DNA of 52,579 nt from a virus. Lineage: Duplodnaviria; Heunggongvirae; Uroviricota; Caudoviricetes. How positions within the stretch are numbered: the stretch's first letter is position 1; each line of letters opens with the position of its first letter. The DNA is taken from the IMG/VR virus record IMGVR_UViG_2684622554_000006. The stretch is one strand, 5' to 3'. The position numbers and the translations under genes were made by a program. The notes beneath the pieces are model-generated. The model saw only the letters and a list, made by a program, of their open reading frames with translations, was not told the DNA's origin and searched no databases. This document shows, piece after piece, positions 22,615-52,579 of the stretch.

Positions 22615-22637
22615 GGAAGAGCAGGAGAGCAAAACAG

Positions 22638-24657: not shown

Positions 24658-24660
24658 ATC

Positions 24661-26080: not shown

Positions 26081-26082
26081 GC

Positions 26083-28056: not shown

Positions 28057-28058
28057 AC

Positions 28059-28594: not shown

Positions 28595-28622
28595 GACAAG
28601 GCCCGATAACGGGCCTTAATTT

Positions 28623-29150: not shown

Positions 29151-29154
29151 ATTA

Positions 29155-30065
29155 AACGCTCGCTACATTATACCAGGTGCCATTTATATACTTTTGAACG
29201 GGTCTGTAATAAACACCCGCTATATTATCGGCAGAGTTAGACCCTGTATCCTGAACATTAATACCAGACAATACATGACCTGAAGGGCACTGGAAATTCA
29301 TGTTCGCCAGTTGTTCACTCCATAATATTGCTGTGAACCAAGTCGAACATCTTTCACATAACGGGAATCAAAGTTACCGTAATCCGAGGGATTAACACGC
29401 CCCGTAATATTTATGGTCTTATTACTTTGAATGCTTCCGGGAACAAAGCGCATAACATGGACGTAATTAGCATAAACATCCAGATTACCATCGCCATTTT
29501 GTTTAAAGCCCGTGTCATTATCACCCAATACAATCGAATTACGCAAGAGCACTGGATGTTCCGATACCCAGTGCACCATTCAGTTGACCACGCAGATAAC
29601 GGCAGTGCACCAACATCTCCTGCTGAAGGTTTTCTGGTGGTGGTGTAAAATTCGGACCAGTCGGCTTCAAACCATAACCATCACGGGCTGAACGATAAAA
29701 ATACCGCCATTTTTATAATTAATCCGAAACTGAGCTGCAGGACAACTTCCGTCTCCATATAAAAATGAATAATTAACGTTGATGCACCACCAATATTTGC
29801 GTTATAGGCTCCGCTACTCCAGTTCCATCCAACTGCTTTATCATTCGCAACGGTGCTTCCTGTTTTCCTAAGGCAAACGCACCAACATGACTTGCTTTTA
29901 ATGTGATATCGGAGGAACCATCAAAAGCCACATTGCTTATTTTCCTGGCAGTTTTTATTTTGCAGCTGTAGAAGCATTGCCGGATAGTTCACCAGAAAGG
30001 CCACCGCTGAATGTTTGTCGATTAGTCCAGGTATTCGCTGTACTGAGTAACGGTATTTTCTCCCC
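29155..30065 (-). CDS. Alternative tail-fibre C-terminal (receptor-binding) cassette H', promoterless until inversion; frameshifted as given
   Basis: Minus-strand coding potential from the right crossover site down to the tfa' start, in several frames (for example track ORF 29298-29579). Confidence 0.45.
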
Positions 30066-30088
30066 GCTTGTGCCGAGTTCTCGTAAAC
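29982..30088. repeat. Right arm of the ~105-bp inverted repeat
   Basis: Reverse complement matches 27355-27460. Confidence 0.7.
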
Positions 30089-30103
30089 CGAGGTTTTAAA
30101 TAA
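30078..30103. promoter_or_regulatory. Right crossover site (gix/cix-like)
   Basis: TTCTCGTAAACCGAGGTTTTAAATAA matches the gix consensus TTCCTGTAAACCGAGGTTTTGGATAA at about 22 of 26 positions (from memory). Confidence 0.7.
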
Positions 30104-30158
30104 TGGCCGTTTCTGGCCTGCATGGCATGATTTGCTGCTTTTGGACGGGAGATTCAGT

Positions 30159-30761
30159 GTGCTGATTGGCTATGTAAGGGTATCAACAAATGACCAGAAT
30201 ACAGACCTGCAACGAAACGCTCTTGTTTGTGCAGGATGTGAACAAATATTTGAAGATAAATTAAGCGGGACAAAGACAGACCGACCGGGATTTAAAACGC
30301 GCTTTAAAGCGCCTTCAAAAAGGTGACACGCTGGTTGTCTGGAAACTGGATCGCCTCGGGCGAAGCATGAAACATCTGATTTCTCTCGTCGGGGAACTAC
30401 GGGAGCGAGGGATTAATTTTCGCAGTCTGACCGACAGCATAGACACATCTTCTCCAATGGGGCGTTTTTTCTTCCACGTGATGGGTGCCTGGCTGAAATG
30501 GAACGTGAATTAATTGTTGAACGTACACTGGCCGGGCTGGCGGCAGCGCGCGCAAGGGGGCGCACAGGCGGACGTCGACCGAAGCTGACAAAAGAACAGC
30601 ATGAGCAAATAGCAAGGCTAATCAAAAACGGGCACGACAGAAAACAACTGGCAATAATTTACGGCATTGGCACATCGACGATTTATCGTTATCACCCTGT
30701 AGCGATATACAGACTGAAGAAACAACCGGGCAGACTCAGGAAAATGAAAACCGCTATCTGA
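30159..30761 (+). CDS. pin: Serine DNA invertase (Pin/Gin/Cin/Hin family); frameshifted at about 30290 and 30490 as given
   Basis: GTG start; [38 protein letters not shown] is near-identical to e14 PinE as I recall it, including the catalytic Ser in VRVSTNDQ; an intact frame can be reconstructed by combining both copies. Confidence 0.8.
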
Positions 30762-30777
30762 CCATTAGCGGTTTTTG
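30749..30777 (+). terminator. Rho-independent terminator after the invertase
   Basis: AACCGCTA-loop-TAGCGGTT followed by TTTTTG. Confidence 0.5.
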
Positions 30778-30831
30778 TGTTAAATCAGAACAGCCCTTTA
30801 ACTGAACTGGCCGCGCTGTTAAGAGATGATG

Positions 30832-31278
30832 TCACCTTATCTTTGAGCCGGACAGCATATCACTGAACGATGAGGATTGCAGGCGCTCCCGCAAATCCTC
30901 ATCACAGCGTTCAAGAGTCAGTGAAAATTCTATCTTTTTCGCCTTACCGTAGCGATCAAACTCGGAGCGGGTCGTATTCGTTTCAGTCAGGACATACATG
31001 CCGTAAATCTGCCCGACGCCATCAATCAAAGGCCAGGGTCGTCCTGTATACGCCTGCGTGGTCAGCAGCGACAGCGACACTTCGCCACCTGTAATTTCAG
31101 GATAAAGCACACCAGAAAGAACGATGCGATCATCACCTGCACCGATATACTGCCAGCTTGCTGAACGGTTAACGCGTTCATTTTTCACATGCCGCCAGCT
31201 TTTGTTTTGCTGTAACTGCTGATGCGGCAGCGTGCGCAGCTCAAAAACAAACATGCCGTAGATCATCATCATGGCCAT
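30832..31278 (-). CDS. U: Tail protein U (P2 gpU family), copy 1, C-terminus frameshifted
   Basis: 148 aa, identical to the copy-2 U (43500-43994, 164 aa) except for the last residues. Confidence 0.65.
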   Translation of the reverse strand: MAMMMIYGMFVFELRTLPHQQLQQNKSWRHVKNERVNRSASWQYIGAGDDRIVLSGVLYPEITGGEVSLSLLTTQAYTGRPWPLIDGVGQIYGMYVLTETNTTRSEFDRYGKAKKIEFSLTLERCDEDLRERLQSSSFSDMLSGSKIR

Positions 31279-31289
31279 GACTCCTCAAT

Positions 31290-32691
31290 CTTTATCGTAA
31301 AAACTGCACGCCCGGCACGGGCGCGCCGTTCCATTTCTGCCCTGACCATTTCACCGACCAGTTTCGCCAGTTCGCGGGATTCTGCGTAACAACGTTATGC
31401 AGATGAACATGAATTTCACCACCAAATCCGGAGGCAACAGGCTCCGGTTACGGGAAGTTACAGGAACTGATGCCACTGGAGATCGTATAGCCTCCGCCAC
31501 CGGCGGGAGCTGGCCGCAACAACAGGGACCAGCGCCGGAGGCAGCGGAGCCGGGACCACGGGTGTGATATTAATTGCGGGGGCAGGCTTACTGACCTGCG
31601 CAATCTTCCGCTCCTGCCACTCCCACGAACAGCAAGTGCTCGGGCAGGTTTTTAAAGACAATATCGCCGGGGCCAATGCGTTTTTTCGTCTCCTCAACCA
31701 GCTTACCTGTGTTATCAGCAATTTTGCTGAGTCTGCGCAGCGTACCGGTATTGCTGTCTGTGAGCGGTTATTGTCTTTGGGGTTATCACCTCGGTGCCAT
31801 TGCCATTTTCCACAGGCTTCGGCGGATTGATTTTCGCCAGGTCCCCCTGAAGCAAGGCAACCTTGTCCTGAAGAATGGCCGCACGCTGTGCGTCTTCGAT
31901 TTTCTTGCGCGCCCTTTCCGCTTCATCCGGAAGCACACCAAGCTTTTCAAGTATCCACGCCAGCGTATCCAGCAACATTTTTGCAGGTGTCAGAACAAGT
32001 TGTAACGCACCGCCAAGAACGTTACCGAATATCTCGCCAGCACTGGTACATTTATCCAGAGTTTCCTTGCTGGACTCCATCGGAGACAGCAGCGATTTAA
32101 ACCAGTTAAACACCTGGCTGATCCCACTCCCGATTGCGTCAAAAACAGGACCAAACCGTTCAAAGGTTTCGCGCAACGGGGTCAGCCTTTCCATAATCCC
32201 GCTGAACACCCCGGCAAAAAATGCCCTGATGGGATCCCAGTATTTCCAGATGAGAACGGCAGCTCCGGCAAGCGCAGCCACGATAAGGCCGACCGGACTG
32301 AACAACGCCCCGATAGCGCCCCCCAGTAACGAAACGGAACCCGTCACCATTCCCCATAGTGCTGGCAGGAGTCTGACAGCATTCATTGAACCGGTCAGGA
32401 GGGAAAAGCCAAGACGCAGTTTTGCCAGCGGGCCAGCAAGCACACCAATAGCCAGCGACAACGAGCCAACCGTTGCAGTCATTGCCAGCAACGCACCGCC
32501 TGCTATCAGTAGCTGGCGCGTCAGTACCGGATGGGCCTGCGCCAGCGAGGTGATTTTTTCAAGCACCGCGTGAGCCACTGCGTGACAGAACGCAGCGGAC
32601 CGTCAACCAGATCACTGATGCGAATACGAAGACCTTCCCATGCGCTGTCGAGATTTTTCAGGTCCCCATCAAGATTATCGGCCATTACTTT
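31290..32691 (-). pseudogene. C-terminal part of tape-measure gene T, copy 1, truncated at the duplication junction
   Basis: Track ORFs 31458-31721 and 31715-32578 match the copy-2 T C-terminal region; the sequence switches to mid-endolysin sequence at about 32692. Confidence 0.6.
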
Positions 32692-33540
32692 GAAATCTCG
32701 GAAGTGGATTTTGGTATCACCGAAGGATTGCGCAGTCGTTATCGTCAGAAGCAGCTCGTGACCACAGGCAAGAGCCAGACCATGAACAGTCGCCATCTCA
32801 CAGGGCATGCGTGGATGTTGTGGCTTATGTCGGCAACAGGTTCATGGAATGGCGCTGTACGAAAAAAATCGCAGCAGCATTCAGACAGGCAGCCAGGAAC
32901 TGAATATTCCGGTGGAATGGGGCGGCGACTGGAAGACCTGAAAGACGGACCGATTTTCAGTTACACACGGAGCCTATCCGGCATGAAGCTCTGGCCCAGC
33001 TTGGCGTCGCTTTCCTTCTGATTACATCCATGCGTCTGTCGTGGTCGCTGGGCCGGAGAACGCCAGAAACGAAGCGCAGGCCAGCACCTGAAAAGTACGT
33101 CGACACACTGAATATCATCAGCGCCGGGTACAGGATATGCACAGGTGCTGGCTCAGCTCCGCGCGGAAAATCAGCAACGCAATCAGGACGGAGAGGTAAG
33201 ACGTGAACAGCTACGCAACGATATTGCAAAAGATGAATGCGCCCACGCTTTGCCTGACGCTCGTTTTACTGACAGGTTGCGCAGGCACGCAGAACGCGCC
33301 AGGGCCAGCGCCGTCAGTCCGGCTTATACGCAGACGCTGACATGCCGGTAACGCCTCCCCCTTCCTGACCCACCCACATGGGGAAACTCGGAATATGGGG
33401 CGACCGCCTTCTGGATGCACTGGAAACCTGTAACGCGGATAAACGGGCCATTGCTGAACTGGATAAGAGAATAGCCGAACTGACACACCAGACGGGAGTA
33501 ACACAATGACCAGTAAGAACTTTGCACTGATTACAGCCAT
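32692..33540 (+). pseudogene. Copy-2 endolysin 3' fragment and spanin region, disrupted by indels
   Basis: Track ORFs 32704-33021 and 33145-33351 carry fragments of the endolysin and Rz-like sequences. Confidence 0.55.
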
Positions 33541-35361
33541 GACACAGGCTGAACTGACTCAAAAGGTGAATGAACATCTTGCGAAAGGGTGGCATCTTCA
33601 GGGGAGACGCGGGTTGCCTACGAACCCGGCACCGTGGTATCTAATGCAGGCAATGGTGGCCGATGGCACTACAGACATCTCACCTGATTCCCCCAGCACG
33701 GCAGGTGCCGGAGTGGTATTACGTGGTGGTACTTGCTGGTCAATCCAATGCCATGTCATATGGTGAGGGAATGCGCTGCCGGATTCTTACGATGCGCCCA
33801 CCACGCATTAAGCAACTGGCCGTCGCAACACAGTGATCTCCGGTGGTAAAGCATGCGCATTTAACGACATCATTCCGGCAGACCACTGCCTGCATGATGT
33901 TCAGGATATGAGCGCACTGAATCACCGAATGCAGACCTGAGCAAAGGGCAGTATGGCTGTGTCGGACAGGGCTTGCATATTGCCAAACGCCTGTTGCTTA
34001 CATTCCACAGAATGCCGGGATTTTACTGGTTCCATGCTGTCGTGGTGGTTCGGCATTCACCAGGGCGCGGAGGGGACATTCAGCGAGTCCACAGGAGCCA
34101 GTCAGGATTCGGCTCGCTGGGGTGTGGGTAAACCTTTATATCAGGACCTGATTTTGCGCACGAAGGCCGCATTGCAGAAAACCCAAAAAACATGCTGCTG
34201 GCCGTATGCTGGATGCAGGCGAATTTGACATGAGCGCCGCTACGTACTCACAGCAACCTCCGCTGTTTACGGCATGCTGAAACAGTTTCGTGCGGACATT
34301 ACCGAGTTTAACACGCAGTGTCATGGAGGCAGAGCGGCAAGTGTGCCATGGATTTGTGGTGACACGACGTATTACTGGAAAAAACACCTACGGCACGCAG
34401 TACGACACCATTTACGGGGCGTACAAAAACAGGGAGAGCGACAACGTTTTCTTTGTGCGTTCCTGACCGATGGTAGTGGCAACAATACCTCCACCAACGA
34501 CCAACGGAAGATCGGATGCTGCAAGTGAGGGATATTACGGTTCGGCATCCCGAACGAACAAAAACTGGGTATCATCAAATCGCCAGACGCATTTCAGCTC
34601 ATGGGCGCGTCGTGGCATTATTCCCGATCGTATGGCAACCGCTATTCTGAACGTAGCCGGTCGCACTTAGCCTTCATCAGTGGTAAGGCACCGGAAATCA
34701 AACCCTCGCCCGGCGGCGACACGCATCGGGGCCGTCTGAAGATGCATCCGTACGCACAATCTCCCTGTTGCGACAGCGGAGATGCTGCTGCGCAGGGCTG
34801 GAGCATTAAGAATGGCGGAATTCAGTTGTCAGAGGGTGTATTTAAGATCACCAAGCAGAGCAATAAAGCCTGGTCCTGACGCGCGCCGGTGGATGACGCA
34901 GTCTCCTGCTGACACGGGGTGGCAGACTGAGCTGTAAGTTTCGACTGTCAGGCGCACTGACCAACAATCAGTTCGGTCTGGGAATTTATCTGTATACCGA
35001 TGTAGCGTTACCTGACGTCGTGGCGATGACCGGGACTGGTAACCCGTTCCTGATGTCGTTCTTCACCCAGACCACAGACGGCAAACTGAATCTGATGCAT
35101 CACAAGAAAGCAGGAAACACAAAGTTGGGCGAGTTCGGGAATTACAGTAACGACTGGCAGACGCTGGAGCTGGTGTTCACCGCCGGCAGTGCCACGGTTA
35201 CTCCGAAACTGAATGGAGTGGCTGGCCCGGCATTCCAGGTCATAAAAGACAGTCTGACACTGGGGCTGAATGCGCTGACGTTAACTGATATCACTAAAAA
35301 TGCCGCGTACGGCGTCGATATCGGCAGCCTGGTGCTGGAAATCAATAATCCCGCAGCATAA
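33506..35361 (+). pseudogene. Copy-2 DUF1737-SGNH esterase, multiple frameshifts
   Basis: Fragments in track ORFs 33506-33766, 33953-34228, 34470-34670, 34601-34879 and 35020-35361 are collinear with the copy-1 esterase. Confidence 0.6.
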
Positions 35362-35384
35362 GGAAGAGCAGGAGAGCAAAACAG

Positions 35385-35851
35385 ATGCTTAAGACAAACA
35401 GTCTGCGAGAGTCCATGCTTCATGGGTGTCGGTGGTGCCAGGCTAATCCGAGAAATTCACCATTTTCGTGGAGAGCGGCAACATTGAAACGACCGGAGAA
35501 GCGCCCTCGTTTGTTTACCGCTATCAGATGGTGATGTTTGTCATGGATTACGCCGGAGAGCTGGACGACCTCACGCTGCCGCTGCTGGCGTGGTTATCCG
35601 AAAATCAGCCACAGTTGTTGCTCAATCCGGAGCGTAATCAGGACATCAAATTTTCTGCCGTTATCAATGACGATGACAGCGCCGATCTCCTGTTTACGCT
35701 CCCCCTGCGGGAACGCGTTCGCATCACGCGCAACAGTCAGGGCACACCGCAGGCAGAACACCTGCCGGAGCCAAAACCCCGTCTGCCTTCTTCCGAAGGC
35801 GACTGGTCGCATGTATTCCAGGATGTGACGTGGGGTGAAAGCGATGGATAA
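35385..35851 (+). pseudogene. Copy-2 tail completion protein R (frameshift near the 5' end; intact C-terminus)
   Basis: Track ORF 35468-35851 ends ...SEGDWSHVFQDVTWGESDG. Confidence 0.55.
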
Positions 35852-35854
35852 GGC

Positions 35855-38814
35855 ATTCACCCGCGTGGATGAAACCTTGAGGCTATCCGCGACAGCTGAA
35901 TCAGCAGGCCATCAATAACATCGCCAGAAAGCTGGCACAGGATTTACGTCGCGCCCAGCAGGCACGTATCCGGTCACAAAAAGCGCCGGACGGGACCGAA
36001 TGGACACCACGCAGACGCCGCGTAACCCGGATACAGGAGCGCATTCGCTTTATCTGGAATAACGAAGCACGCACGCTGAAAAACTGGCATCACGACACAG
36101 GGAAATACGGGCGAACCATTACCGGGTGGGATGAGGATAAAAACAATATCCGCACGTTTTACCGGGATGACATCGACCGTTTTCTGGAAATACGCACCCG
36201 GCGCATCAACCAGGACAGCACAAAGCGCGTCCCATGTTCGTAAAACTGCGCACCGCCCGCTACCTGAAAGCCCGTGCAGATGCCTCCGGTGTGACGGTGG
36301 GTTACAGCGGCGTGGCGCACGTATTGCACGCGTTCATCAGTTCGGTGAGCGCGATCAGGTTGCGCGGGCATTTTCACCGATTACCCGGTACGTGAGCTGT
36401 TGGGTATCAGCCAGGCAGATGAGCGCCTGATTTATAACACGGTGCTGGGCCGGATTGCGGAGGCTGTACGGTGAGCGCAGAACTCATGCGACTGCTGAGC
36501 AACATCATCCGCACCGGGATCATCTCTGAAGTTGATGAGAAGTCCTGGCGCGTGCGCGTTCGCAGCGGCGAACTGGAAACAGGCTGGTTGCGCTGGAACA
36601 CCACGCGCGCGGGAGCCTTCAATGTGTGGCTGCGCCATCACCAGGCGAACAGGTGGTAATTGCCTGCATTGGCGGCAACCCGGAAACCGCCATGATAATT
36701 GGCAGCCTGTGGAGTGATGCCAGTCCGGCCCCGGCAAAAGCCTGAAAGAAATCGTGGTCAGCGCGCCGGATGGCGCGGTGTTCCGCTACGACGCAGACGC
36801 TGGCGCACTGAGCGCCAGCGGCATGAAAACAGCCACCCTGCAGGCATCCGTCAGCGTGACACTGGATACGCCCGTCGTGGAATGCACAAACCTTCTGAGA
36901 ACGGCGACGCTTGACGTCACAAAAGAGGGAAAGATGAGCGGCAATATCACGCACAGCGGCGGCAATTTCACCTCAAACGGCATTACCGTGCATACGCATA
37001 AGCACGGTGGCGTTAAAGGTGGCAGCGATTCGACAGGAGGCCGCAGTGACAACCCGCTACACAGGAATGAACCCGGACGGGACGGGAAACCTGAACGATA
37101 TGGAGCACCTGAAACAGTCAGTCAGGGACATCCTGATCACCCCGCTGGCAAGCCGGGTTATGCGACGGGAATATGGCAGCCTTGTGCCTGATTTGATTGA
37201 CGAACCCATGAATAACACCACGCGTCTGCAATGCATGAGTGCTGCCGTGATTGCGCTGACACGATGGGAACCCCGCATTGCCCTGGACGCCATCGACGTT
37301 GTCTGGAAGGCAGGAGGCCGCGCCGGGGTGACGCTGTCGGGCACTGTCATGCAGACCATGCAGAATGTTGAATTAACCATCACGCTGAGAGAGTAAATCA
37401 TGCCTGCTGTTGATCTTTCCAGTTACCGGAACCGCCATCATCGCGGAGCCTGATTTTGAGGCAATTCTGGCTGACACAAAGGCCATGATGATTGCGTCCT
37501 ATCCTGCCGAACAGCGTGAAGCCGTCTCCGCGCGCTGGAGCTGGAATCAGAACCCCTGAACGTTATCGCTCAAACCATGTCGTTTTCGTGAAATGCTGTT
37601 ACGCCAGCGGGTTAACGAGGGCGCACGCGCCTGCATGTTAAGCACGGTTCAGGGACAAACCTGGACAACCTCGCGGCAATATGAACACAAAGCGCCTGGT
37701 TATCACTCCGGCAACGGATACCACCGACGCGGTGATGGAGAGCGACACCTCGCTGAGACTGCGGGCGCAGCGGGCGTATGACGGCCTGAGTGTTGCTGGC
37801 CCGTCAGGTGCATACGAGTATTTTGCACGCAGCGCCAGCGGTCTGGTGCGTGATGCGCGGGCCATCAGCCCGTCTCCGGCCTGTGTGACGGTTTCCATTC
37901 TGTCCACTGAAGGCGACGGCACAGCAACGGAGGCGTTGCTTAATACCGTTCGCGCCGTTCTGAATGCAGAGGATACCCGCCCGGTGGCCGACCGACTGAC
38001 CGTACAGAGCGCCAGCATCGTGACATGGCGGCTGAATGCAAAACTGTACTTTTACCCCGGCCCGGAATCCGAACCTATTCTGGCTGCGGCTGAATCGTCG
38101 TTCAGGAAGTGGCTGGCTGAGCAGGGGCTTATTGGTCAGGACGTGGCGTTGTCAGCCATTGCTGCCGCACTTCATGTGCACGGCGTGCAACGCGTGGAGA
38201 TAATCGAACCCACACAGAATATGGCCATCAGCGACATACAGGCGGCGCGCTGTGAGTCATTCACCATCAGCGAAGGTGGGCGTAATGAGTAATTCACTGT
38301 TACCGCCATCAGCCAGCAATTTCATGCGTTGCGCCGAAGCTGTCGGAGCGCGCATTACAGACATCCCGGTAGACCTCAACACGCTGTGGTCACCGGACAC
38401 CTGCCCGGTGCATCTGCTGCCTTATCTCGCCTGGGCATTTTCCGTTGACCGCTGGGATCGCAACTGGCCGGAAGAGACAAAGCGACAGGTGATTCGTGAT
38501 GCATGGCTGATACACCGACACAAAGGGACCATCAGCGCACTGCGCCGGGCCATTGAGCCGCTGGGATACCTCATTCGCGTGTCTGAGTGGTGGGAGTTCG
38601 GCGGAGAACCGGGAACATTTACCGTTGAAGTCGGCACGCTGGACAGTGGCGTGACGGAGGAAATGTATCTGGAAATGGAGCGGTTGATTGCTGATGCCCG
38701 CCCGGTCAGCCGCCACATGACAGGGCTGAATATCATTCAGGAGATTCAGGGAGATATTTCGCGGCGGCAGCAACTTACGACGGCGAAGTCATTACCATTT
38801 ATCCGGACGATTAA
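35855..38814 (+). pseudogene. Copy-2 S-V-W-J-I block, several frameshifts
   Basis: Track ORFs 36471-36659, 36754-37191, 37007-37396, 37681-38292 and 38252-38836 are collinear with the copy-1 S, V, W, J and I genes. Confidence 0.55.
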
Positions 38815-38816
38815 GC

Positions 38817-40793
38817 ATGAGTACCACAACACGTAAATTTAAAACCGTTATCACCGATACGGGTGCCAAAAAATTAGCTCAGGCAGCCGCGCCAGATGGT
38901 AAGCCTGTCCGCCTGACTCATATGGCCGTGGGCGACGGTGGCGGCACGTTGCCACACCAGACAGTAAGCAGACCCGTCTGGTGCATGAGGTGTGGCGACA
39001 TACTGTTAATCGCGTCATCCTGGACGCAACACATCAGAACCGCATTATTGCGGAGCTGGTTATTCCTCCTGAAACGGGCGGATTCTGGATCCGGGAAATT
39101 GGTGTATTTGATGAGCACGGCGATTTAATCGCGGTGGCAATACTGCCGAAAGTTACAAGCCAGCCGTTGCCGAAGGGTCCGGTCGTGCACAAACATTTCG
39201 CACCATTCTGACCGTATCCAGCACTGCCACCGTGGTGCTTACCGTGGATAACACCATGGTGATGGCCACAGTGGATTACGTGGATGACAAACTGAAAGAG
39301 CATGAACAGTCACGACGTCACCCGGACGCCTCGCTGACCGCAAAAGGCTTTGTTCAACTCAGTAGCGCCACTAACAGCGTGTCTGAAACGCAGGCTGCAA
39401 CGCCGAAAGCAGTAAAGGCCGCGTATGACCTTGCTAACGGTAAATATACTGCGCAGGATGCCAGCACGACGCGAAAAGGCCTTGTCCAGCTCAGTAGCGC
39501 CACCAACAGCACGTCTGAAACGCAGGCTGCAACGCCGAAAGCAGTAAAGGCCGCGTATGACCTTGCTAACGCAAAATATACCGCTCAGGACGCCACGACG
39601 GCACAAAAAGGGATAGTCCAGCTCAGTAGTGCCACCAACAGCACGTCTGAAACACTGGCCGCGACATCGAAAGCTGTTAAGGCGGTAATGGATGAAACGA
39701 ACAAGAAAGCGCCCTTAAATAGTCCTGCACTGACCGGAACGCCAACAACACCAACTGCGCGACAGGGAACGAATAATACCCAAATCGCAAGCACGGCTTT
39801 CGTTATGGCTGCGATTGCCGCCCTTGTAGATTCGTCACCTGATGCACTGAACACGCTGAACGAGCTGGCTGCGGCGCTGGGCAACGACCCGAATTTTGCG
39901 ACCACCATGACTAACGCGCTTGCGGGTAAGCAACCGAAAGATGCCACCCTGACGGCGCTGGCCGGACTTACTACTGCGGCAGGCAAGTTTCCGTATTTTA
40001 CGGGAATGATGTCGCCAGCCTGGCAACCCTGACAAAAGTCGGGCGGGATATTCTTGCGAAATCGACCGTTGCTGCCGTTATCGAATACCTCGGTTTACGA
40101 GAACTCGGCACAAGCGGGGAGAAAATACCGTTACTCAGTACAGCGAATACTGGACAATCGACAAACATTCAGCGGTGGCCTTTCTGGGGAACTGTCCGGC
40201 AATGCCGCTACTGCACAAAGCTGAAAACAGCACGAAAAATTGCTGAGTTGGTTTTGATGGTTCTAGCGATATTTCAATTAGTGCAAAAATGTCAATGCAT
40301 TTGCACTCCGACAAACAGGTAATACTGTTAATGGTGATACATCCGTTGGATGGAATTGGGATAGTGGTGCATATAACGCCATGATTGGTGGTGCATCTGC
40401 ATTAATTCTTCACTTTAATATAAATGCTGGTAGCTGTCCTGCCGTACAATTCCGTGTGAATTATAAAAATGGTGGCATTTCCTACAGGTCGGCTCGTGAT
40501 GGTTATGGTTTGAATTAGGTTGGTCAGATTTCTATACCACGACACGAAAACCTTCAGCGGGAGATGTTGGTGCATATACGCGGACAGAATGTAACTCAAG
40601 GTTTATTACAGGTATTCGCCTTGGCGGTCTGTCATCTGTTCAGACATGGAATGGTCCCGGCTGGTCTGACAGGTCAGGTTATGTCGTTACGGGTTCAGTT
40701 AACGGAAACCGTGATGAATTAATTGATACAACACAGGCAAGGCCAATTCAGTATTGCATTAATGGGACGTGGTATAACGCGGGGAGTATTTAA
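38817..40793 (+). pseudogene. Copy-2 tail fibre H (frameshifted), including left gix-like site at about 40078-40103
   Basis: Track ORFs 38817-39128 and 39232-40032; copy 2 reads through the position of the copy-1 premature stop ([25 protein letters not shown]...). Confidence 0.55.
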
Positions 40794-40795
40794 CG

Positions 40796-41327
40796 ATGAT
40801 GCACTTAAAAAACATTACTGCTGGCAACCCTAAAACAAAAGAGCAATACCAGCTAACAAAGCAATTTAACATCAAATGGCTTTATTCAGCTGATGGAAAA
40901 AACTGGTATGAGGAACAAAAGAATTTCCAGCCAGACACTTTGAAAATGGTCTATGACCATAACGGCGTTATTATTTGTATTGAAAAGGATGTTTCAGCAA
41001 TTAATCCGGAAGGCGCAAGCGTCGTTGAATTACCTGATATTACAGCAAATCGCCGGGCTGATATTTCGGGGAAATGGATGTTCAAAGATGGCGTAGTGGT
41101 AAAGCGAACTTATACCGAGGAAGAGCAGAGGCAACAAGCGGAAAATGAAAAGCAGAGCCTGTTGCAACTTGTCAGGGATAAAACTCAGCTATGGGACTCA
41201 CAGCTACGGCTGGGCATCATTTCCGACGAGAATAAACAAAAATTAACCGAGTGGATGCTCTATGCGCAGAAAGTCGAATCCACAGACACTCCAGCCTGCC
41301 AGTAACATTTCCCGAACAACCTGAATG
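40796..41327 (+). CDS. Copy-2 tail fibre assembly chaperone (Tfa); frame intact for 169 aa, C-terminal few residues shifted
   Basis: Track ORF 40796-41305. Confidence 0.6.
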
Positions 41328-41354
41328 AGACAAGGCCCGATAACGGCCTTAATT

Positions 41355-42793
41355 TTATTCAGGCTTTTGTGGCCATTCAGGATTTGCCGTATCCACACGG
41401 TTGACCAGAACACTGTAGCGTTCCATGCTTCAGTCGTGTGCGTTCTCGTCTGTTGCATATTCAGCCTGACAGCGCGTTCCAGCGGCTGGATGACTGATTC
41501 AGTTCGGAAAGCAATGCGGCCTTTTGTGATTCGGCCTGTTGTTGCTGTTCGTCAGCCGTATAAATCCGTTTAACCACAGCTCCGTCTTAAACATCCACTT
41601 ACCGGAATCATCGGTCCGACGATTGGCGTTATATCGGAACCTCGACGACGCTAAAACCTTCGGATTAAGCGTGGAGGCATCTCTGGTGATGGCGACAATA
41701 ATATTATTTTCATCGTAAACAATCTTTATGGTGTCTGGCTGAAAGTTTTTCACTTCCTCATACCAGTTTTTTCCGTCCTCAGAGTAAAGCCAGATAACTC
41801 CGTGTTTCTTTGTTAACTCATACTGTTCAGTGTTTTAGCATTACCCGCTTTTATGTTCTTTAAGTGCATCATATTAAACGCTCGCTACATTATACCAGGT
41901 GCATTTATATACTTTTGAACGGGTCTGTAATAAACACCCGCTATATTATCGGCAGAGTTAGACCTGTATCCTGAACATTAATACAGACAATACATGACCT
42001 GAAGGGCACTGGAAATTCCATGTTCGCCAGTTGTTCACTCCATAATATTGCTGTGAACCAAGTCGAACATCTTTCACATAACGGGAATCAAAGTTACCGT
42101 AATCCGAGGGATTAACACGCCCGTAATATTTATGGTCTTATTACTTTGAATGCTTCCGGGAACAAAGCGCATAACATGGACGTAATTAGCATAAACATCC
42201 AGATTACCATCGCCATTTTGTTTAAAGCCCGTGTCATTATCACCAATACAATCGAATTACGCCAAGAGCACTGGATGTTCGATACCAGTGCACCATTCAG
42301 TTGACCACCAGATAACGGCAGTGCACCAACATCTCCTGCTGAAGGTTTTCTGGTGGTGGTGTAAAATTCGGACAGTCGGCTTCAAAACCATAACCATCAC
42401 GGGCTGAACGATAAAAATACCGCCATTTTTATAATTAATCCGAAACTGAGCTGCAGGACAACTTCCGTCTCCATATAAAAATGAATAATTAACGTTGATG
42501 CACCACCAATATTTGCGTTATAGGCTCCGCTACTCCAGTTCCATCCAACTGCTTTATCATTCGCAACGGTGCTTCCTGTTTTCCTAAGGCAAACGCACAA
42601 CATGACTTGCTTTTAATGTGATATCGGAGGAACCATCAAAAGCCACATTGCTTATTTTCCTGCAGTTTTTAATTTTGCAGCTGTAGAAGCATTGCCGGAT
42701 AGTTCACCAGAAAGGCCACCGCTGAATGTTTGTCGATTAGTCCAGGTATTCGCTGTACTGAGTAACGGTATTTTCTCCCCGCTTGTGCCGAGT
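41355..42793 (-). pseudogene. Copy-2 Tfa' and alternative fibre cassette (frameshifted), up to the right gix-like site at about 42794-42819
   Basis: Collinear with 28623-30103 of copy 1; only short track ORFs remain. Confidence 0.5.
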
Positions 42794-42872
42794 TCTCGTA
42801 AACCGAGGTTTTAAATAATGGCCGTTTCTGGCCTGCATGGCATGATTTGCGCTTTTGGACGGGAGATTCAGT

Positions 42873-43471
42873 GTGCTGATTGGCTATGTAAGGGTATCAA
42901 CAAATGACCAGAATACAGACCTGCAACGAAACGCTCTTGTTTGTGCAGGATGTGAACAAATATTTGAAGATAAATTAAGCGGGACAAAGACAGACCGACC
43001 GGGATTAAAACGCGCTTTAAAGCGCCTTCAAAAAGGTGACACGCTGGTTGTCTGGAAACTGGATCGCCTCGGGCGAAGCATGAAACATCTGATTTCTCTC
43101 GTCGGGGAACTACGGGAGCGAGGGATTAATTTTCGCAGTCTGACCGACAGCATAGACACATCTTCTCCAATGGGGCGTTTTTTCTTCCACGTGATGGGTG
43201 CCCTGGCTGAAATGGAACGTGAATTAATTGTTGAACGTACACTGGCCGGCTGGCGGCAGCGCGCGCAAGGGGGCGCACAGGCGGACGTCGACCGAAGCTG
43301 ACAAAAGAACAGCATGAGCAAATAGCAAGGCTAATCAAAAACGGGCACGACAGAAAACAACTGGCAATAATTTACGGCATTGGCACATCGACGATTTATC
43401 GTTATCACCCTGTAGGCGATATACAGACTGAAGAAACAACCGGGCAGACTCAGGAAAATGAAAACCGCTAA
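42873..43471 (+). pseudogene. Copy-2 Pin-family invertase (frameshift at about 43250)
   Basis: Track ORF 42855-43301 carries the catalytic N-terminal 140 aa; C-terminal HTH is in another frame; stop at 43469-43471. Confidence 0.6.
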
Positions 43472-43499
43472 TCTGACCATTAGCGGTTTTTGTGTTAAA

Positions 43500-43994
43500 T
43501 CAGAACAGCCCTTTAACTGAACTGGCCGCGCTGTTAAGAGATGATGTCACCTTATCTTTGAAGCCGGACAGCATATCACTGAACGATGAGGATTGCAGGC
43601 GCTCCCGCAAATCCTCATCACAGCGTTCAAGAGTCAGTGAAAATTCTATCTTTTTCGCCTTACCGTAGCGATCAAACTCGGAGCGGGTCGTATTCGTTTC
43701 AGTCAGGACATACATGCCGTAAATCTGCCCGACGCCATCAATCAAAGGCCAGGGTCGTCCTGTATACGCCTGCGTGGTCAGCAGCGACAGCGACACTTCG
43801 CCACCTGTAATTTCAGGATAAAGCACACCAGAAAGAACGATGCGATCATCACCTGCACCGATATACTGCCAGCTTGCTGAACGGTTAACGCGTTCATTTT
43901 TCACATGCCGCCAGCTTTTGTTTTGCTGTAACTGCTGATGCGGCAGCGTGCGCAGCTCAAAAACAAACATGCCGTAGATCATCATCATGGCCAT
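43500..43994 (-). CDS. U: Tail protein U (P2 gpU family), copy 2, apparently intact (164 aa)
   Basis: ORF whose start overlaps the T stop. Confidence 0.75.
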   Translation of the reverse strand: MAMMMIYGMFVFELRTLPHQQLQQNKSWRHVKNERVNRSASWQYIGAGDDRIVLSGVLYPEITGGEVSLSLLTTQAYTGRPWPLIDGVGQIYGMYVLTETNTTRSEFDRYGKAKKIEFSLTLERCDEDLRERLQSSSFSDMLSGFKDKVTSSLNSAASSVKGLF

Positions 43995-46814
43995 GACTCC
44001 TCAATCTTTATCGTAAAAACTGCCACGCCCGGCACGGGCGCGCCGTTCCATTTCTGCCCTGACCATTTCACCGACCAGTTTCGCCAGTTCGCGGGATTCT
44101 GCGTAACAACGTTATGCAGATGAACATGAATTTCACCACCAAATCCGGAGGCAACAGGCTCCCGGTTACGGGAAGTTACAGGAACTGATGCCACTGGAGA
44201 TCGTATAGCCTCCGCCACCGGGCGGGAGCTGGCCGCAACAACAGGGACCAGCGCCGGAGGCAGCGGAGCCGGGACCACGGGTGTGATATTAATTGCGGGG
44301 GCAGGCTTACTGACCTGCGCAATCTTCCGCTCCTGCCACTCCCCACGAACAGCAAGTGCTCGGGGCAGGTTTTTAAAGACAATATCGCCGGGGCCAATGC
44401 GTTTTTTCGTCTCCTCAACCAGCTTACCTGTGTTATCAGCAATTTTGCTGAGTCTGCGCAGCGTACCGGTATTGCTGTCTGTGAGCGGTTTATTGTCTTT
44501 GGGGTTATCACCTCCGGTGCCATTGCCATTTTCCACAGGCTTCGGCGGATTGATTTTCGCCAGGTCCCCCTGAAGCAAGGCAACCTTGTCCTGAAGAATG
44601 GCCGCACGCTGTGCGTCTTCGATTTTCTTGCGCGCCCTTTCCGCTTCATCCGGAAGCACACCAAGCTTTTCAAGTATCCACGCCAGCGTATCCAGCAACA
44701 TTTTTGCAGGTGTCAGAACAAGTTGTAACGCACCGCCAAGAACGTTACCGAATATCTCGCCAGCACTGGTACATTTATCCAGAGTTTCCTTGCTGGACTC
44801 CATCGGAGACAGCAGCGATTTAAACCAGTTAAACACCTGGCTGATCCCACTCCCGATTGCGTCAAAAACAGGACCAAACCGTTCAAAGGTTTCGCGCAAC
44901 GGGGTCAGCCTTTCCATAATCCCGCTGAACACCCCGGCAAAAAATGCCCTGATGGGATCCCAGTATTTCCAGATGAGAACGGCAGCTCCGGCAAGCGCAG
45001 CCACGATAAGGCCGACCGGACTGAACAACGCCCCGATAGCGCCCCCAGTAACGAAACGGAACCCGTCACCATTCCCCATAGTGCTGGCAGGAGTCTGACA
45101 GCATTCATTGAACCGGTCAGGAGGGAAAAGCCAAGACGCAGTTTTGCCAGCGGGCCAGCAAGCACACCAATAGCCAGCGACAACGAGCCAACCGTTGCAG
45201 TCATTGCCAGCAACGCACCGCCTGCTATCAGTAGCTGGCGCGTCAGTACCGGATGGGCCTGCGCCAGCGAGGTGATTTTTTCAAGCACCCGCGTGAGCCA
45301 CTGCGTGACAGAACGCAGCGGACCGTCAACCAGATCACTGATGCGAATACGAAGACCTTCCCATGCGCTGTCGAGATTTTTCAGGTCCCCATCAAGATTA
45401 TCGGCCATTACTTTTGCAACGCGATCGGCCTCTCCCTTGCCCCCTGCAATTCTCTGGTCAGTTTTTGCAGCTCTCCTGAACCAGCCGCCGCAACAAGCGT
45501 CTGCAAACCAACGAACGCCTCTTCTCCGGCGATGTCCTTGAAGAAGGAAACCTGGTCCACCTGTCCGTATTTTTGTGTCGCCTTATAGAGATCAAGCAGC
45601 ACATCCTCCATCGGGCGCATTTTGCCTCTGGCGTCAGCAACTGACACCCCCAGCTCTTTCAGCGCATCAGCCGCAGCTTTTGGCGGTGATGCAAGGCGGG
45701 ACAGACTTGCGCGCATGGCCGTACCAGCATCGCTTCCACGAAGACCATTATTGGCAAGCATCCCGGCCATGGCTGCCGCTTCTTCAAGACTGATACCAAG
45801 TTTTGCGGCAACCGGACCGGTATACTTCATGGTTTCGCCCAGCGCGCGTAAATCAGTATTGGTCCGGGTGAATGCCGCTGTCAGCGTATCGCCAACCCGG
45901 TCCATTTGATCGGCTGTCAGGTTGAACTGTGTGAGGATATTGGAGCCTATATCAGCCGTCTCGCCGAGTTCGACGCCACCTGCCAGCGCCATATTAAGAA
46001 CACCGGGCAATGCGGCCTGAATGGCCTGCGGAGTAAAACCAGCCATTGCCAGAAAGCTCTGCCCACTGGCGGCATCACTCGCAGTAAACTGTGTTTCAGA
46101 GCCAAGTTTTAACGCCTGCTCACGCAGCGCCTTAAACTGCGGGCTGTTTTTGTCGATTCGCGTCAGCGCCTGAACGCGGGACATCTCTTTGCCGAACCCG
46201 ATCGCGGGCTGCAAAAAACGCCCGGCAGCATAGCCGCCCGCCGCTGCCGCACCAATTGCCAGCGCACCACCTGTTTTCAGTTTTCCCGCGGTTTCCTGCG
46301 CGCGCGAATACCGCTCACGAGCCTGCGTTACACGCGCAAGCGCCTGCCGTTCGCGTTCAAGCTGGTTGTTGTATTGTTCGGTGCGTCTGATGGCCTGCTG
46401 GATGGTGTTATCGCTGCCTGTCAGGGAAATGCCGTGGCGTTTCAGTTCTCCGCCAAGCTCCCGCATTTTCTGAATTTCCCGTGTGCGCGATTCATTCAGG
46501 CGTTCAAGCCGGGTGCTTAACTGCTGCATCAGCTTTTGTTGTTTTTCGCTGAGCACTGTACCCGTGCGTTGTAACTGATTAAGGGCGTTAAGCTGGCGTC
46601 GTGCTTTCACGATACCCGCATCCGCTTTACTGACAGCGTCGCGGGCGCGCTCAAATGAACGCGCCTGACGCTCGAGATTTTTGATCGCCCCCTGCGTTCG
46701 CTGAATGGAGTCACCAAACTGCCCCATCAGGCGGCGGGCGTTTTCGGCAGGCCGGGTCAGCCTGTCAACGGCGCTGAAAGCGACCCGGATGTCAAGAGTC
46801 TTCATTATCTGCAT
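43985..46814 (-). CDS. T: Tail tape-measure protein T; split as given by an in-frame TAA at 45408-45410 and a frameshift near 45075
   Basis: N-terminal tape-measure core (...GETMKYTGPVAAKLGISLEEAAAMAGMLANNGLRG...) in 45408-46841; continues as MADNLDGDLKNLDSAWEG...; one extra A in the A4 run at 45411-45414 would restore a continuous ...QKVMADNLDG... frame. Start codon uncertain (46805, 46814 or a GTG at 46841). Confidence 0.75.
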
Positions 46815-49081: not shown

Positions 49082-49238
49082 AGCTTCAGCCCCTTGTATC
49101 CGTTAAATGATTCGGCAACAATCATCACCCACCACGCGCGTAATCTCACCCCTGCGCCGTTCTCCCGCCACGGCGACAACAAAAAGCAGTAACCCCCTCC
49201 GCACGCACATGCGACCATGCCGCACAGGGAGGGAGCAG

Positions 49239-50348
49239 ATGACCGACACCACCATGCAATTGCTCAGTCAGGGCACAGACCCCGTGAAAATGCCGGATTT
49301 TGATATTCTCGCGGAGGGTAAAACGCTGTCAGGCGTGGCAGAGCGCCTGATGAGCCTGTCACTGACCGACAACCGGGGATTTGAGGCGGACCAGCTCACC
49401 ATCACGCTGGATGATGCGGATGGTCAGTTGCAGCTACCGCCACGGGGCGCGCGCCTGACGGTTCTCATTGGCTGGAAAGGAGAACCGCTGACAGAAAAAG
49501 GCACTTACATTGTTGATGAAATCGCTCACGAAGGACCGCCGGACAGGCTGACTGTTTCAGCCAGAAGCGCAGATTTTCGGGATGAATTTAACGTTAAACG
49601 TGAGGTGTCCTGGCATGATGTGACCGTTGAGCGTGTGGTATCCGCCATCGCTCATCGGTATGGTCTGAAACCGCAAATCAGCGAAATGCTGATGGATATC
49701 GAAATCGACCACGCCGACCAGACCGAAGAAAGCGACATGTCCTTCCTTACGCGCATGGCGGAAATGCTGGGCGCAATCACCACGGTAAAAAGCGGTAATC
49801 TGTTATTCATCATGCCCGGCGGTGGCGTGAACGCACAGGGCCAGCCGTTGCCATCGTTTGCCATCACACGCAGCAGCGGCGATCGCCATCAGTTCCGCAT
49901 TGCTGACCGCGAAGCGTATACGGGGGTACGCGCTTACTGGCTTGATCTTAATTACGGGAAAAAGAAAAAAGTCAGCGTGAAACGCCGTAAACCGCCAAAA
50001 CCCAAAAAGGAGAAAAGCAGCAGCCGCGAAGGTGATTATATGGAAGGCGCGGAAGGCAATGTGTTTGTGTTACGCAAGACTTATCAGAACGAGCAGGCAG
50101 CAAGACGCGCAGCGGCGGCAAAGTGGCAGCAACTACAACGCGGAGCCGCATCATTCTCCATCACGCTGGCGCGTGGACGTGCAGAACTCTACCCCGAAAT
50201 GCATGGCACGGTAACAGGATTTAAAAGCGAGATTGATAATCAGGACTGGATCATTGCAAAAGCCGAGCACACCATTGATAACAGCGGTTTTACCACGCAG
50301 CTTGAGCTTGAGGCAAAAATCCCGGAATGGATAGCGGAAACAGAGTGA
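49239..50348 (+). CDS. D: Tail protein D (late control gene D family)
   Basis: ATG at 49239 with AGGGAGGG RBS, inside track ORF 49107-50348; N-terminal LSLTDNRGFEADQLTITLDDADGQLQLP matches the gpD family pattern. Confidence 0.85.
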   Translation: MTDTTMQLLSQGTDPVKMPDFDILAEGKTLSGVAERLMSLSLTDNRGFEADQLTITLDDADGQLQLPPRGARLTVLIGWKGEPLTEKGTYIVDEIAHEGPPDRLTVSARSADFRDEFNVKREVSWHDVTVERVVSAIAHRYGLKPQISEMLMDIEIDHADQTEESDMSFLTRMAEMLGAITTVKSGNLLFIMPGGGVNAQGQPLPSFAITRSSGDRHQFRIADREAYTGVRAYWLDLNYGKKKKVSVKRRKPPKPKKEKSSSREGDYMEGAEGNVFVLRKTYQNEQAARRAAAAKWQQLQRGAASFSITLARGRAELYPEMHGTVTGFKSEIDNQDWIIAKAEHTIDNSGFTTQLELEAKIPEWIAETE

Positions 50349-50388: not shown

Positions 50389-50649
50389 ATGTTCCGTTGT
50401 CCGCTTTGTGGCGCATCTGCCCGTATCCGCACCAGTCGTCCGGAAAATGATTCAAACACCGTGCGGCAAAAGTATTACCAGTGTAACAATCTGGAATGCG
50501 GCGTATGCTTCTCAACACTGGAAGCTTTCCATAAATTCACATCAAAACACGCCTCCGGCGTTCACTCTTCAGAAGGTATCCCGTGGCATGATCTGCCAGC
50601 TTCACACAGGGGAAACAATCAGATGAGTTTGCCTTTATCTCAGAATTAA
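50389..50649 (+). CDS. ogr: Ogr/Delta-family zinc-finger late-gene transcription activator
   Basis: MFRCPLCGASARIRTSR...YYQCNNLECGVCFSTLE shows the Cys4 C-x2-C...C-x4-C arrangement and N-terminus of Ogr; AAGGGAGG RBS. Confidence 0.85.
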   Translation: MFRCPLCGASARIRTSRPENDSNTVRQKYYQCNNLECGVCFSTLEAFHKFTSKHASGVHSSEGIPWHDLPASHRGNNQMSLPLSQN

Positions 50650-50737
50650 CAGGCAGAATTGCCGGAGTAACAAAAAAGCGATAGATTACGTGCGGGTGCC
50701 TTTCGGCTGATGGTCGGAGGGAATACCCGAAGGCCAG

Positions 50738-50923
50738 ATGTGGAAAGGCCCCGAGTCAACTTTAACGTTAACCCGAGGCCCTAACCATCTACCCTCAGCA
50801 AGTGATAGGTTAGCGCCTCCCCGAAAAAGGAGCAAGCGCTATGTCGCAAAAATCGCTTACGGCCATCACATTCTGCGTGACGGCAATCCTCATCATCTGG
50901 ATGCTGCACGGTTCGCTGTGTGA
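50738..50923 (+). CDS. Mok-like overlapping reading frame of the hok-type toxin locus
   Basis: 61-aa ORF starting upstream of the hok-like ORF and overlapping it in another frame, as in hok/mok/sok loci. Confidence 0.4.
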   Translation: MWKGPESTLTLTRGPNHLPSASDRLAPPRKRSKRYVAKIAYGHHILRDGNPHHLDAARFAV

Positions 50924-50981
50924 AATACGGATGAGTTTCTGGGGAGCGGAGTTTGCGGCGTTCTTACAGTGTAAGCAGTAA
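50841..50981 (+). CDS. hok: Hok/Gef-family type I toxin (46 aa)
   Basis: MSQKSLTAITFCVTAILIIWMLHGSLCEIRMSFWGAEFAAFLQCKQ: N-terminal TM helix plus SLCEIR and E-x-AAF motifs shared with Hok/Gef/RelF; AGGAG RBS 8 nt upstream. Below the ORF-track cutoff; found by reading the sequence. Confidence 0.7.
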   Translation: MSQKSLTAITFCVTAILIIWMLHGSLCEIRMSFWGAEFAAFLQCKQ

Positions 50982-51075
50982 GGAAACCGCGACGGGGAAG
51001 GCAACTTCCCCGTCAATCGGTTGCCAGGGTAAAGGTCGAAAAGGCACCCTATTTCCAGTTGACGTGAACAACAAG

Positions 51076-51107
51076 CCCGCAGCGTAAAAACTGCGGGTTT
51101 TCTTTTT
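51076..51107 (+). terminator. Rho-independent terminator (CCCGCAG-loop-CTGCGGG + TTTTCTTTTT)
   Basis: Read directly downstream of the hok-like ORF. Confidence 0.6.
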
Positions 51108-51140
51108 GGTTCCCTCACTCATGAGGACACCAAAAAACAA

Positions 51141-51171
51141 AGCCCACAGCATAGAAGCTGTGGGCTTTTTG
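51141..51171. terminator. Rho-independent terminator (AGCCCACAGC-ATAGAA-GCTGTGGGCT + TTTTT), possibly bidirectional (A-run upstream)
   Basis: Perfect 10-bp stem read directly. Confidence 0.6.
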
Positions 51172-51245
51172 CATTCAAAGATGGACGTTATATGGACACT
51201 TAAAAATAAAATCCATTTATTTTCAAATGATTAAACCTCTACTTA

Positions 51246-51266
51246 AAGCGCCCGCAGGCGCTTTTT
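51246..51266. terminator. Hairpin AAGCGCC-CGCA-GGCGCTT + TTT, 20 nt beyond the serS stop
   Basis: Stem-loop with T-run on the plus strand; on the minus strand it lies directly 3' of serS. Confidence 0.45.
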
Positions 51267-51286
51267 AGATTCAGAAAAATTGGGTA

Positions 51287-52579
<1,293 letters not shown>

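Follow-up and report, generated by a model that had tools for sequence, protein, structure and literature searches.

A probable Hok/Sok-type toxin–antitoxin module between ogr and the right attachment site of a P88-like prophage of Escherichia coli

The window, by which we mean the whole 52,579-nt stretch of viral DNA that was analysed, closes its phage part with a P2-type late region, in which a gpD-like ORF (49107-50348) is followed by an ogr/Delta zinc-finger gene (50389-50649; Pfam Ogr_Delta, 52 bits). This gene directly precedes a short plus-strand ORF for a Hok-like peptide, in agreement with the sequence-only reading, which had placed the toxin ORF after the last prophage gene. Downstream of the locus, serS (51287-52579) lies on the minus strand. 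A 651-bp segment spanning the locus is 100% identical in many ST131-type E. coli chromosomes (JJ1887, O25b:H4 and others), where PGAP labels the genes 'ogr/Delta-like zinc finger family protein', 'Hok/Gef family protein' (WP_000078916.1) and serS. Loci of this hok family are present in 1575 of 5426 complete E. coli genomes and are always annotated as Hok/Gef; the Hok of the window itself has received this PGAP annotation in hundreds of E. coli genomes. Both the kind of module and the toxin protein are already known, annotated and catalogued. A description of hok adjoining ogr in P2-like phages was not found in our literature search.

The toxin gene (hok; 50841-50981, plus strand) starts with ATG and encodes a peptide of 46 aa, MSQKSLTAITFCVTAILIIWMLHGSLCEIRMSFWGAEFAAFLQCKQ, identical to RefSeq WP_000078916.1. 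Its product scores 29.9 bits against the Pfam HOK_GEF profile (PF01848; gathering score 22, E 4e-7), residues 7-44 aligning with profile positions 5-42 of 42, and it matches PHROG 251 with an E-value of 1.3e-22. These scores place the hok assignment far beyond chance. The motifs SLCEIR and E-F-AAF are both found in the product, so that the 46-aa Hok-like ORF claimed earlier stands. We aligned the peptide with R1-type Hok, HokA, HokB, HokC and the 933W relative and found all family-conserved residues present (C12, T14, L26-C27-E28, E37 and A39), which answers in the affirmative the question raised before of whether the Hok cysteine/AAF pattern is kept. The published family logo has C16, T18, L30-C31-E32 and E41 as conserved residues (bioRxiv 10.1101/2025.08.07.668861), and C44 of the window Hok takes the C/Y48 position of that logo. 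Residues 6-22 (LTAITFCVTAILIIWML) read as an uninterrupted hydrophobic stretch, which fits the single N-terminal helix of Hok toxins of ~50 aa. PADLOC had no model matching the 46-aa peptide.

The peptide is identical to homolog 72_1621 (Table S2 of bioRxiv 10.1101/2025.08.07.668861), which is reported toxic in that 2026 preprint: 45 Hok homologs were tested there, and the only non-toxic ones were 19_179, 60_1482 and 69_1540. The same study found hok to be enriched in prophages.

For comparative analysis we collected relatives by an exact 20-mer scan of IMG/VR and added phage and genome loci that were fetched individually, which gave 70 unique sequences of the clade. Conservation was assessed on these 70 unique sequences, the ORF census on 72, the consensus fold on 66 and the Sok hairpin on 41. 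When genome contigs were scanned with the same approach, five of 11 matches proved to be chance hits in unrelated GC-rich genomes; true 20-mer matches came from a Xanthomonas contig, a Planococcaceae MAG and a Vagococcus assembly, apparently through contamination with enterobacterial DNA, and they were left out.

In the frame of hok, synonymous changes make up 63% of the variant alleles, and 26 of the 43 variable sites fall on codon position 3. Judged by this pattern, Hok is under purifying selection in the clade. The longest ORFs of the interval lie on the opposite strand (50810-51118, 102 aa; 50964-51152, 62 aa), and one could suppose that one of them is the real gene. However, only the hok frame shows coding constraint: synonymous variation is 19% in two of the three minus frames, and the third, at 54%, shares its wobble positions with hok. 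The minus-strand ORFs also cross two terminator hairpins, and it is the plus-strand ORF that has significant family matches. We regard a minus-strand gene as exceedingly improbable.

The sequence-only reading had left it undecided whether hok is a host gene beside which the prophage integrated or is carried at the prophage end, and had expected attR in 50650-50840 or 50982-51280. We located the attR core, AAAGCGCCCGCAGGCGCTTT, at 51245-51264, within the second of these ranges and 264 bp downstream of the hok stop codon. This 20-bp core coincides with the serS terminator hairpin and was derived from a three-way comparison of the right junction in the window with the left junction that the same prophage forms in strain LS4 and with the unoccupied site of K-12; the identical 20-mer is found at attL in LS4 and at the empty K-12 site. 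Homology to K-12 is confined to 52579-51245, and the serS-dmsA spacer of K-12, the prophage-free comparison that had been suggested, contains no hok. Integration exchanges the T7 tract of the serS terminator for TTTAAG (K-12 versus window). The phage arm between hok and attR contains a bidirectional terminator hairpin (51139-51168) with a 12-bp stem and a T run on the minus strand, TTTTT following on the plus strand too; it probably insulates hok/sok from serS read-through. Closer to the core, the attR arm has a direct repeat of the form ATGGAC(N5)ATGGAC(AC) (51181-51199, plus strand), and the attL arm in LS4 has a similar one, ATGGACAGTTTATGGACAC. The ATGGAC-N5-ATGGAC repeats are likely integrase arm-type sites.

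The same association of genes is found in other phages. Homology to P88 (Peduoviridae, Xuanwuvirus) extends from the tail genes past the terminator of hok and ends at 51107. The adjacency of ogr and hok is shared by phages P88, Chuche, P884B11 and Citrobacter phage Shae_phiSM, in each of which different cargo follows before attP/int. It recurs in prophages at three other attachment sites, including those beside ihfA/pheT and beside tRNA-Leu/pgsA, and on the IncF plasmid pCss165Kan. Since attR lies beyond hok, the K-12 site is hok-free and the ogr-hok pair travels in phages, prophages and a plasmid, the hok module is phage cargo inside the att-bounded element. A host chromosomal gene at serS-dmsA, with the prophage merely integrated alongside, would explain why hok sits at the extreme prophage end, past the last recognisable phage gene. 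Such an origin is nevertheless very hard to reconcile with an end of K-12 homology at 51245, a 20-bp att core downstream of hok, a hok-free K-12 spacer and the presence of the locus in sequenced phage genomes and after ogr at other integration sites, and we consider it highly improbable; the host-encoded option of the earlier reading is to be dropped. The right boundary of the prophage can now be set at the serS terminator in genome annotation, with the toxin module assigned to the phage, and hok beside ogr appears as a stable feature of P88-like phages.

We next consider the RNA elements around hok. A sigma-70 scan of 50500-51300 found no promoter, and we infer both promoters of the locus from positional homology with R1 and K-12 together with conservation. 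The putative hok promoter (50659-50687, plus strand) has a -35 box TTGCCG (50659-50664), a 17-nt spacer and a -10 box TAGATT (50682-50687). It starts 10 nt past the ogr stop codon, matches in position the R1-type promoter that precedes GGCGCTTGAGG and is moderately to highly conserved among 70 relatives; with eight of 12 consensus matches it falls under the scan threshold. A transcript from it would begin near 50694, which fits the 5' GG(G/C)xGCxU... of R1-type and K-12 mRNAs, and would end at an intrinsic terminator with a 10-bp stem and a T run (51073-51106, plus strand). Terminator-like hairpins are thus found at 51073-51100 (plus strand) and at 51139-51168, in line with the two terminators reported earlier after the ORF.

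The full-length hok mRNA, with ends set by homology, would measure ~413 nt (50694-51106, plus strand). The fold of this RNA has a minimum free energy of -172.6 kcal/mol (z = -6.8 versus shuffles), and its 5' and 3' ends are paired. The pairing involves a tac-like element at the 5' end, GGGUGCCUUUCGGCU (50694-50708, plus strand), and an fbi-like element, GGUCGAAAAGGCACCC (51034-51049, plus strand), which is complementary to the mRNA 5' end in both the minimum free energy and the consensus structure. The RNAalifold consensus of 66 unique relatives retains the tac-fbi pairing as well as the other helices; covariation in tac-fbi is limited, the sequences being close, and comes down to one pair with double changes. 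When the RNA is shortened at its 3' end (fold of 50694-51030), the 5' end is predicted to switch to an alternative partner, the ucb-like box GAAAGGCCCC (50742-50752, plus strand), leaving 50753-50770 unpaired. Just 3' of the hok stop codon, both the hairpin scan and the minimum free energy fold place a stem-loop (50990-51015, plus strand), which by analogy with R1 is likely to protect the 3' end of the processed mRNA. Among relatives its stem has compensatory changes at 50998:51007 (AU/GC) and 50999:51006 (AU/CG/GC). The hok ribosome-binding site is itself enclosed in a hairpin (50813-50839, plus strand) that is found in the minimum free energy and consensus structures and has highly conserved columns. 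In it the GGAG of the Shine-Dalgarno (SD) sequence AAGGAG (50826-50831) pairs with an anti-SD CUCC (50817-50820), and AGCGC pairs with GCGCU beside the hok start codon.

On the opposite strand, we found signs of a Sok-like antisense RNA of ~60 nt (~50800 to 50740, minus strand, ends set by homology), which would have a single-stranded 5' tail ahead of a 16-bp hairpin. The annotation of K-12 places sokC at -107 to -49 relative to hokC, a position that transfers to ~50734-50792 in the window. The 61-nt Sok-like RNA folds with -30.1 kcal/mol (z -4.9); its hairpin has no classical U-tract. In 41 unique variants, 95% of the hairpin pairs are canonical when read on the antisense strand, whereas the sense strand reaches 79%, since several G-U pairs of Sok correspond to C-A mismatches in the mRNA. 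At least three sequence versions of the upper stem occur, and all of them fold. The most variable stretch among the 70 unique sequences is 50781-50800, corresponding to the Sok 5' tail. The putative Sok promoter (50807-50835, minus strand) consists of a -35 box TTGCTC (complement of 50830-50835), a 17-nt spacer and a -10 box TAACCT (complement of 50807-50812). Its layout and position are those of the R1-type locus (TTGCGC-17-TATCCT), and from this match we place the start of the Sok-like RNA near 50800. The promoter is weak by consensus (six of 12 matches) and absent from the sigma-70 scan output. Across the 70 unique relatives its -10 box is invariant, its -35 box nearly so, and the SD hairpin likewise invariant or nearly so; the conservation of the promoter boxes could equally stem from the hok SD hairpin that they overlap.

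We also compared the locus with the Rfam family RF01794 ('sok'). The match covers 50694-50854 on the plus strand; at 42.8 bits (E 5e-8) it does not reach the gathering score of 59, and model position 1 aligns at 50694. The corresponding scores are 47.9 for P88, 35.6 for 933W, 118 for hokC, 110 for hokB and 87 for the R1-type plasmid locus. In K-12, the model matches hokC and hokB on the hok strand and not on the strand of the annotated sokC and sokB. Hence, the model represents the hok leader in sense orientation. By its scores, the window appears to carry a divergent subfamily version of this leader. Of the RNA parts whose search had been suggested, the tac-fbi pairing and a stable antisense hairpin are present, whereas the covariance match stays under the gathering score. 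The leader and trailer RNA elements (tac/fbi, Sok hairpin and Sok promoter position) are homologous to those of hok/sok loci.

In plasmid R1, mok starts ~59 nt upstream of hok, and its translation is reported to be mandatory for hok translation (PMC9841398). K-12 mokC has its annotated start at -57, under the 5' end of sokC. In the window, a 61-codon ORF (50738-50923, plus strand) in the -1 frame of hok is open and overlaps the toxin gene; it is probably fortuitous. The sequence-only reading had assigned it to the Mok position. While the frame and its 61-aa product do exist, the Mok role is not borne out, given a start at -103 and not near -57, retention in 9 of 72 relatives and 17% synonymous variation. 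At the canonical mok start position the window has ATC; a GAGG motif is present at 50775-50778. An in-frame N-terminal extension of hok, as in mokC, is not found either, frame 0 being closed by TAG at -30 with no start, and frame -2 has its closing stop at -32. Upstream of hok, this leaves the -1 frame as the only open one, from an atypical ATG.

Under the canonical hok/mok/sok scheme, the 61-codon ORF would be the Mok leader, its translation would open the hok ribosome-binding site and Sok would act by blocking Mok. The ORF does share the relative frame of R1 mok (hok = mok +1), runs through the hok SD and ends inside hok, and its ATG, preceded by AAGG 4 nt upstream, lies under the 3' part of the predicted Sok. 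A similar overlapping ORF on pCss165Kan is called 'hypothetical protein' by PGAP. However, the start is misplaced relative to mokC and R1 mok, and the frame is rarely kept. An ORF read from this ATG meets a stop after 1-29 codons in 63 of the 72 unique relatives; stop codons with no later start close the frame in P88, Chuche, P884B11, 933W and others, and its open part in P88 contains no ATG, GTG, TTG, CTG or AUH codon. No ATG/GTG/TTG ORF reaches the hok SD in 43 of 72, yet Hok is under purifying selection; some other relatives have ORFs starting at -130, -100 or -46. The -103 ATG is retained in all relatives, which is explained by its location inside a conserved stem. Variation in the 50738 frame is only 17% synonymous versus 63% in the hok frame, and the 61-codon product has no Pfam, NCBIfam or PHROG match. 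We therefore consider the Mok assignment unlikely, and 50738-50923 is probably a lineage-specific open frame and not a conserved gene.

The apparent absence of Mok in this Hok clade may be a new observation; Mok, Sok and the mRNA elements were explicitly left out of the analysis in bioRxiv 10.1101/2025.08.07.668861. R1 mok translation is reported to be mandatory (PMC9841398) and no mok is conserved here, which leaves either a different mode of expression or many silent copies. It is quite possible, at a probability that we put slightly short of even, that the clade (cluster 72; P88-like and Stx phages) expresses Hok without Mok. The strong SD of hok itself (AAGGAG) would then be used once the leader refolds, and the Sok-like RNA, whose pairing region lies 40-100 nt ahead of the start codon, would repress by a route other than blocking the start of a leader peptide. 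Such repression might proceed by RNase III-type cleavage followed by decay, or by occupation of an upstream standby (ribosome loading) region as in tisB/IstR-1. If true, Mok-free control would be a mechanistic variant of the R1 scheme with its obligatory mok translation. A large, widespread and reportedly toxic Hok clade that apparently has no mok would also offer a natural test case for mok-independent control.

The lack of a conserved mok could also be taken as a sign of decay, the locus being a silent relic in which an intact toxin gene is neither expressed nor regulated in the lysogen. Many K-12 chromosomal hok loci are inactivated, with IS150 and IS186 adjoining hokA and hokC, and both promoters in the window are weak by consensus. 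Against this, the window locus has no IS or truncation, all its RNA elements are intact and conserved across 70 variants, substitutions in hok are strongly synonymous and the peptide is reported toxic (bioRxiv 10.1101/2025.08.07.668861). A relic seems improbable, although less so than a host or a minus-strand gene.

Overall, the best explanation, which we consider very probable as a whole, is that the locus is a Hok/Sok-type type I toxin–antitoxin module which a P88-like prophage (Xuanwuvirus, P2-like), integrated in the serS terminator of ST131-type E. coli, carries at its right end (ogr - hok - attR) as accessory cargo. By homology with hok/sok of plasmid R1, such a module might work as follows. 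A stable mRNA of ~413 nt from ~50694 would be born translationally inert, its 5' end paired with fbi (51034-51049) and its SD held in a local hairpin. Slow 3' trimming to the stem-loop at 50990-51015 would remove fbi, upon which the 5' end would switch to the ucb-like box (50742-50752) and the leader would open. While the prophage is transcribed, the short, unstable and constitutively made Sok-like RNA (~50800 to 50740) would pair with the opened leader and inactivate the mRNA. Should Sok synthesis stop, through loss of the element or through shut-off of transcription by an infecting phage, Sok would decay first. The 46-aa Hok would then be made, insert in the inner membrane, depolarise it and kill or arrest the cell. 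Coupling to an overlapping mok frame, as in R1, is probably dispensable in this Hok clade. As has been shown for other Hok/Sok systems, the module may help to keep the lysogen stable, to exclude other phages or to time lysis.

At the protein level, the window Hok does not differ from a catalogued family member: Escalera-Maurer et al. (bioRxiv 10.1101/2025.08.07.668861) list it as entry 72_1621 of their cluster 72, which is of high abundance and went through cloning and a toxicity test. The RNA anatomy and the ogr-hok-att position given here are not part of that work. The best NCBIfam match is HokA, encoded on the K-12 chromosome, with 43% identity and a common MxQK...WM..SLCE...AAFL.CK pattern. 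The window Hok scores only 34 bits against the HokA equivalog NF007290 (cut-off 89) and hence is not a HokA ortholog. The K-12 hokA gene is disrupted by IS150 upstream.

[quoted passage not shown] We considered it as a characterised ortholog of the window locus, but the primers given in PMC8621323 rule this out. HokW is a HokD-like peptide of 51 aa (MKQQKAM..., HokD/HokC-like; HokD cluster entry 35_712) from a different locus, so hokW-sokW is a functional analogue and not an ortholog. The label 'MokW-like host killing' given to the window-type ORF in phage records is a PHROG family name only. A true member of the same clade is found elsewhere in Stx phages of the 933W/Sp5 type (AF125520 45660-45797), downstream of lom, where it is unannotated in the original records and corresponds to preprint entry 72_1589. 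This copy also encodes 46 aa, with 74% amino acid identity to the window Hok, and the two loci are ~83% identical in nucleotides along the full mRNA, with the regions of tac, Sok and fbi included. They differ in that the 933W/Sp5 locus belongs to a lambdoid phage, is placed beside lom instead of ogr and diverges at the 3' end after fbi; its ORF from the -103 ATG stops after eight codons.

The paradigm for such loci is hok/mok/sok of plasmid R1, which is also known to impair T4 (PMC8621323). [quoted passage not shown] In both, a promoter-proximal tac pairs with a 3' fbi, with tac-ucb as the alternative after 3' trimming (PMC9841398), and a hairpin encloses the hok SD. The promoter of the antisense Sok hairpin RNA lies between the Sok target and the start of hok in R1, and the putative Sok promoter of the window would have the same place. 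However, the toxins have diverged (39% identity over 31 aligned residues; 46 aa in the window versus 52), the basic T-R-K before SLCE being replaced by L-H-G in the window Hok. The RF01794 match is below the gathering score in the window as compared with 87 bits for the R1-type locus, and the clade of the window has neither a conserved mok ORF nor a mok start codon. Finally, the R1 locus resides on a plasmid, whereas the locus described here is carried by a phage.

The interval between hok and attP/int is a variable cargo slot in P88-like phages. Downstream of hok, phage Chuche carries Com and a DNA methyltransferase, phage P884B11 encodes hypothetical proteins, and zinc-ribbon/TagO-like genes are found in both phage Shae_phiSM and plasmid pCss165Kan. 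In the window, where hok lies at 50841-50981, the slot is empty and measures only 137 bp.

The prophage has integrated into the terminator hairpin of serS. Comparison of 51245-51270 with the K-12 empty site and with attL of strain LS4, which harbors the same prophage, revealed that serS in the window keeps its terminator hairpin while the T7 tract is replaced by TTTAAG. Just inside attR, the phage supplies a bidirectional terminator of its own (51139-51168). At attL of LS4, the phage integrase is followed by the complete serS hairpin with its T-tract.

In the late region of the prophage, 12.8 kb with genes for lysis, baseplate, tail fibre and invertase occur as a perfect tandem (19905-32691 and 32692-45414 of the window); in the same prophage of LS4 this block is single-copy. 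The two copies are 98.97% identical, with 0 mismatches and 131 gap openings, and long ORFs are nearly absent from the second one. This pattern suggests an artefact of long-read assembly, or else a duplication that arose very recently and was sequenced with indel errors. The tail-fibre C-terminal/assembly segment (27341-30107 and 40074-42822) is oriented oppositely to that of LS4, where it adjoins a gene for a "recombinase family protein" (a Cin/Gin-like invertase). This inverted segment is a shufflon-type element for host-range switching.

Near-identical copies of the enterobacterial hok locus were also found on contigs assigned to Xanthomonas pisi (a contig of 857 bp), to a Planococcaceae MAG and to a Vagococcus assembly. 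The hok copies in these three assemblies likely result from assembly contamination.

Rfam model RF01794 is named "sok antitoxin (CssrC)". In K-12 the model matches the strand of hokC and hokB and its match stops at the hok start codon, while the annotated sokC and sokB are encoded on the opposite strand. A match to RF01794 therefore marks the hok leader and not the Sok RNA strand.

The Hok protein of IncFII plasmid pMTY1886 is 100% identical to that of the paradigm plasmid R1, and PGAP annotates only a shortened Hok of 33 aa at this locus. An upstream ATG (ATGTCTGACAAC...) is located ~60 nt before hok on pMTY1886, in the hok frame rather than shifted by +1. The mokC/hokC pair of K-12 shows the same in-frame arrangement.
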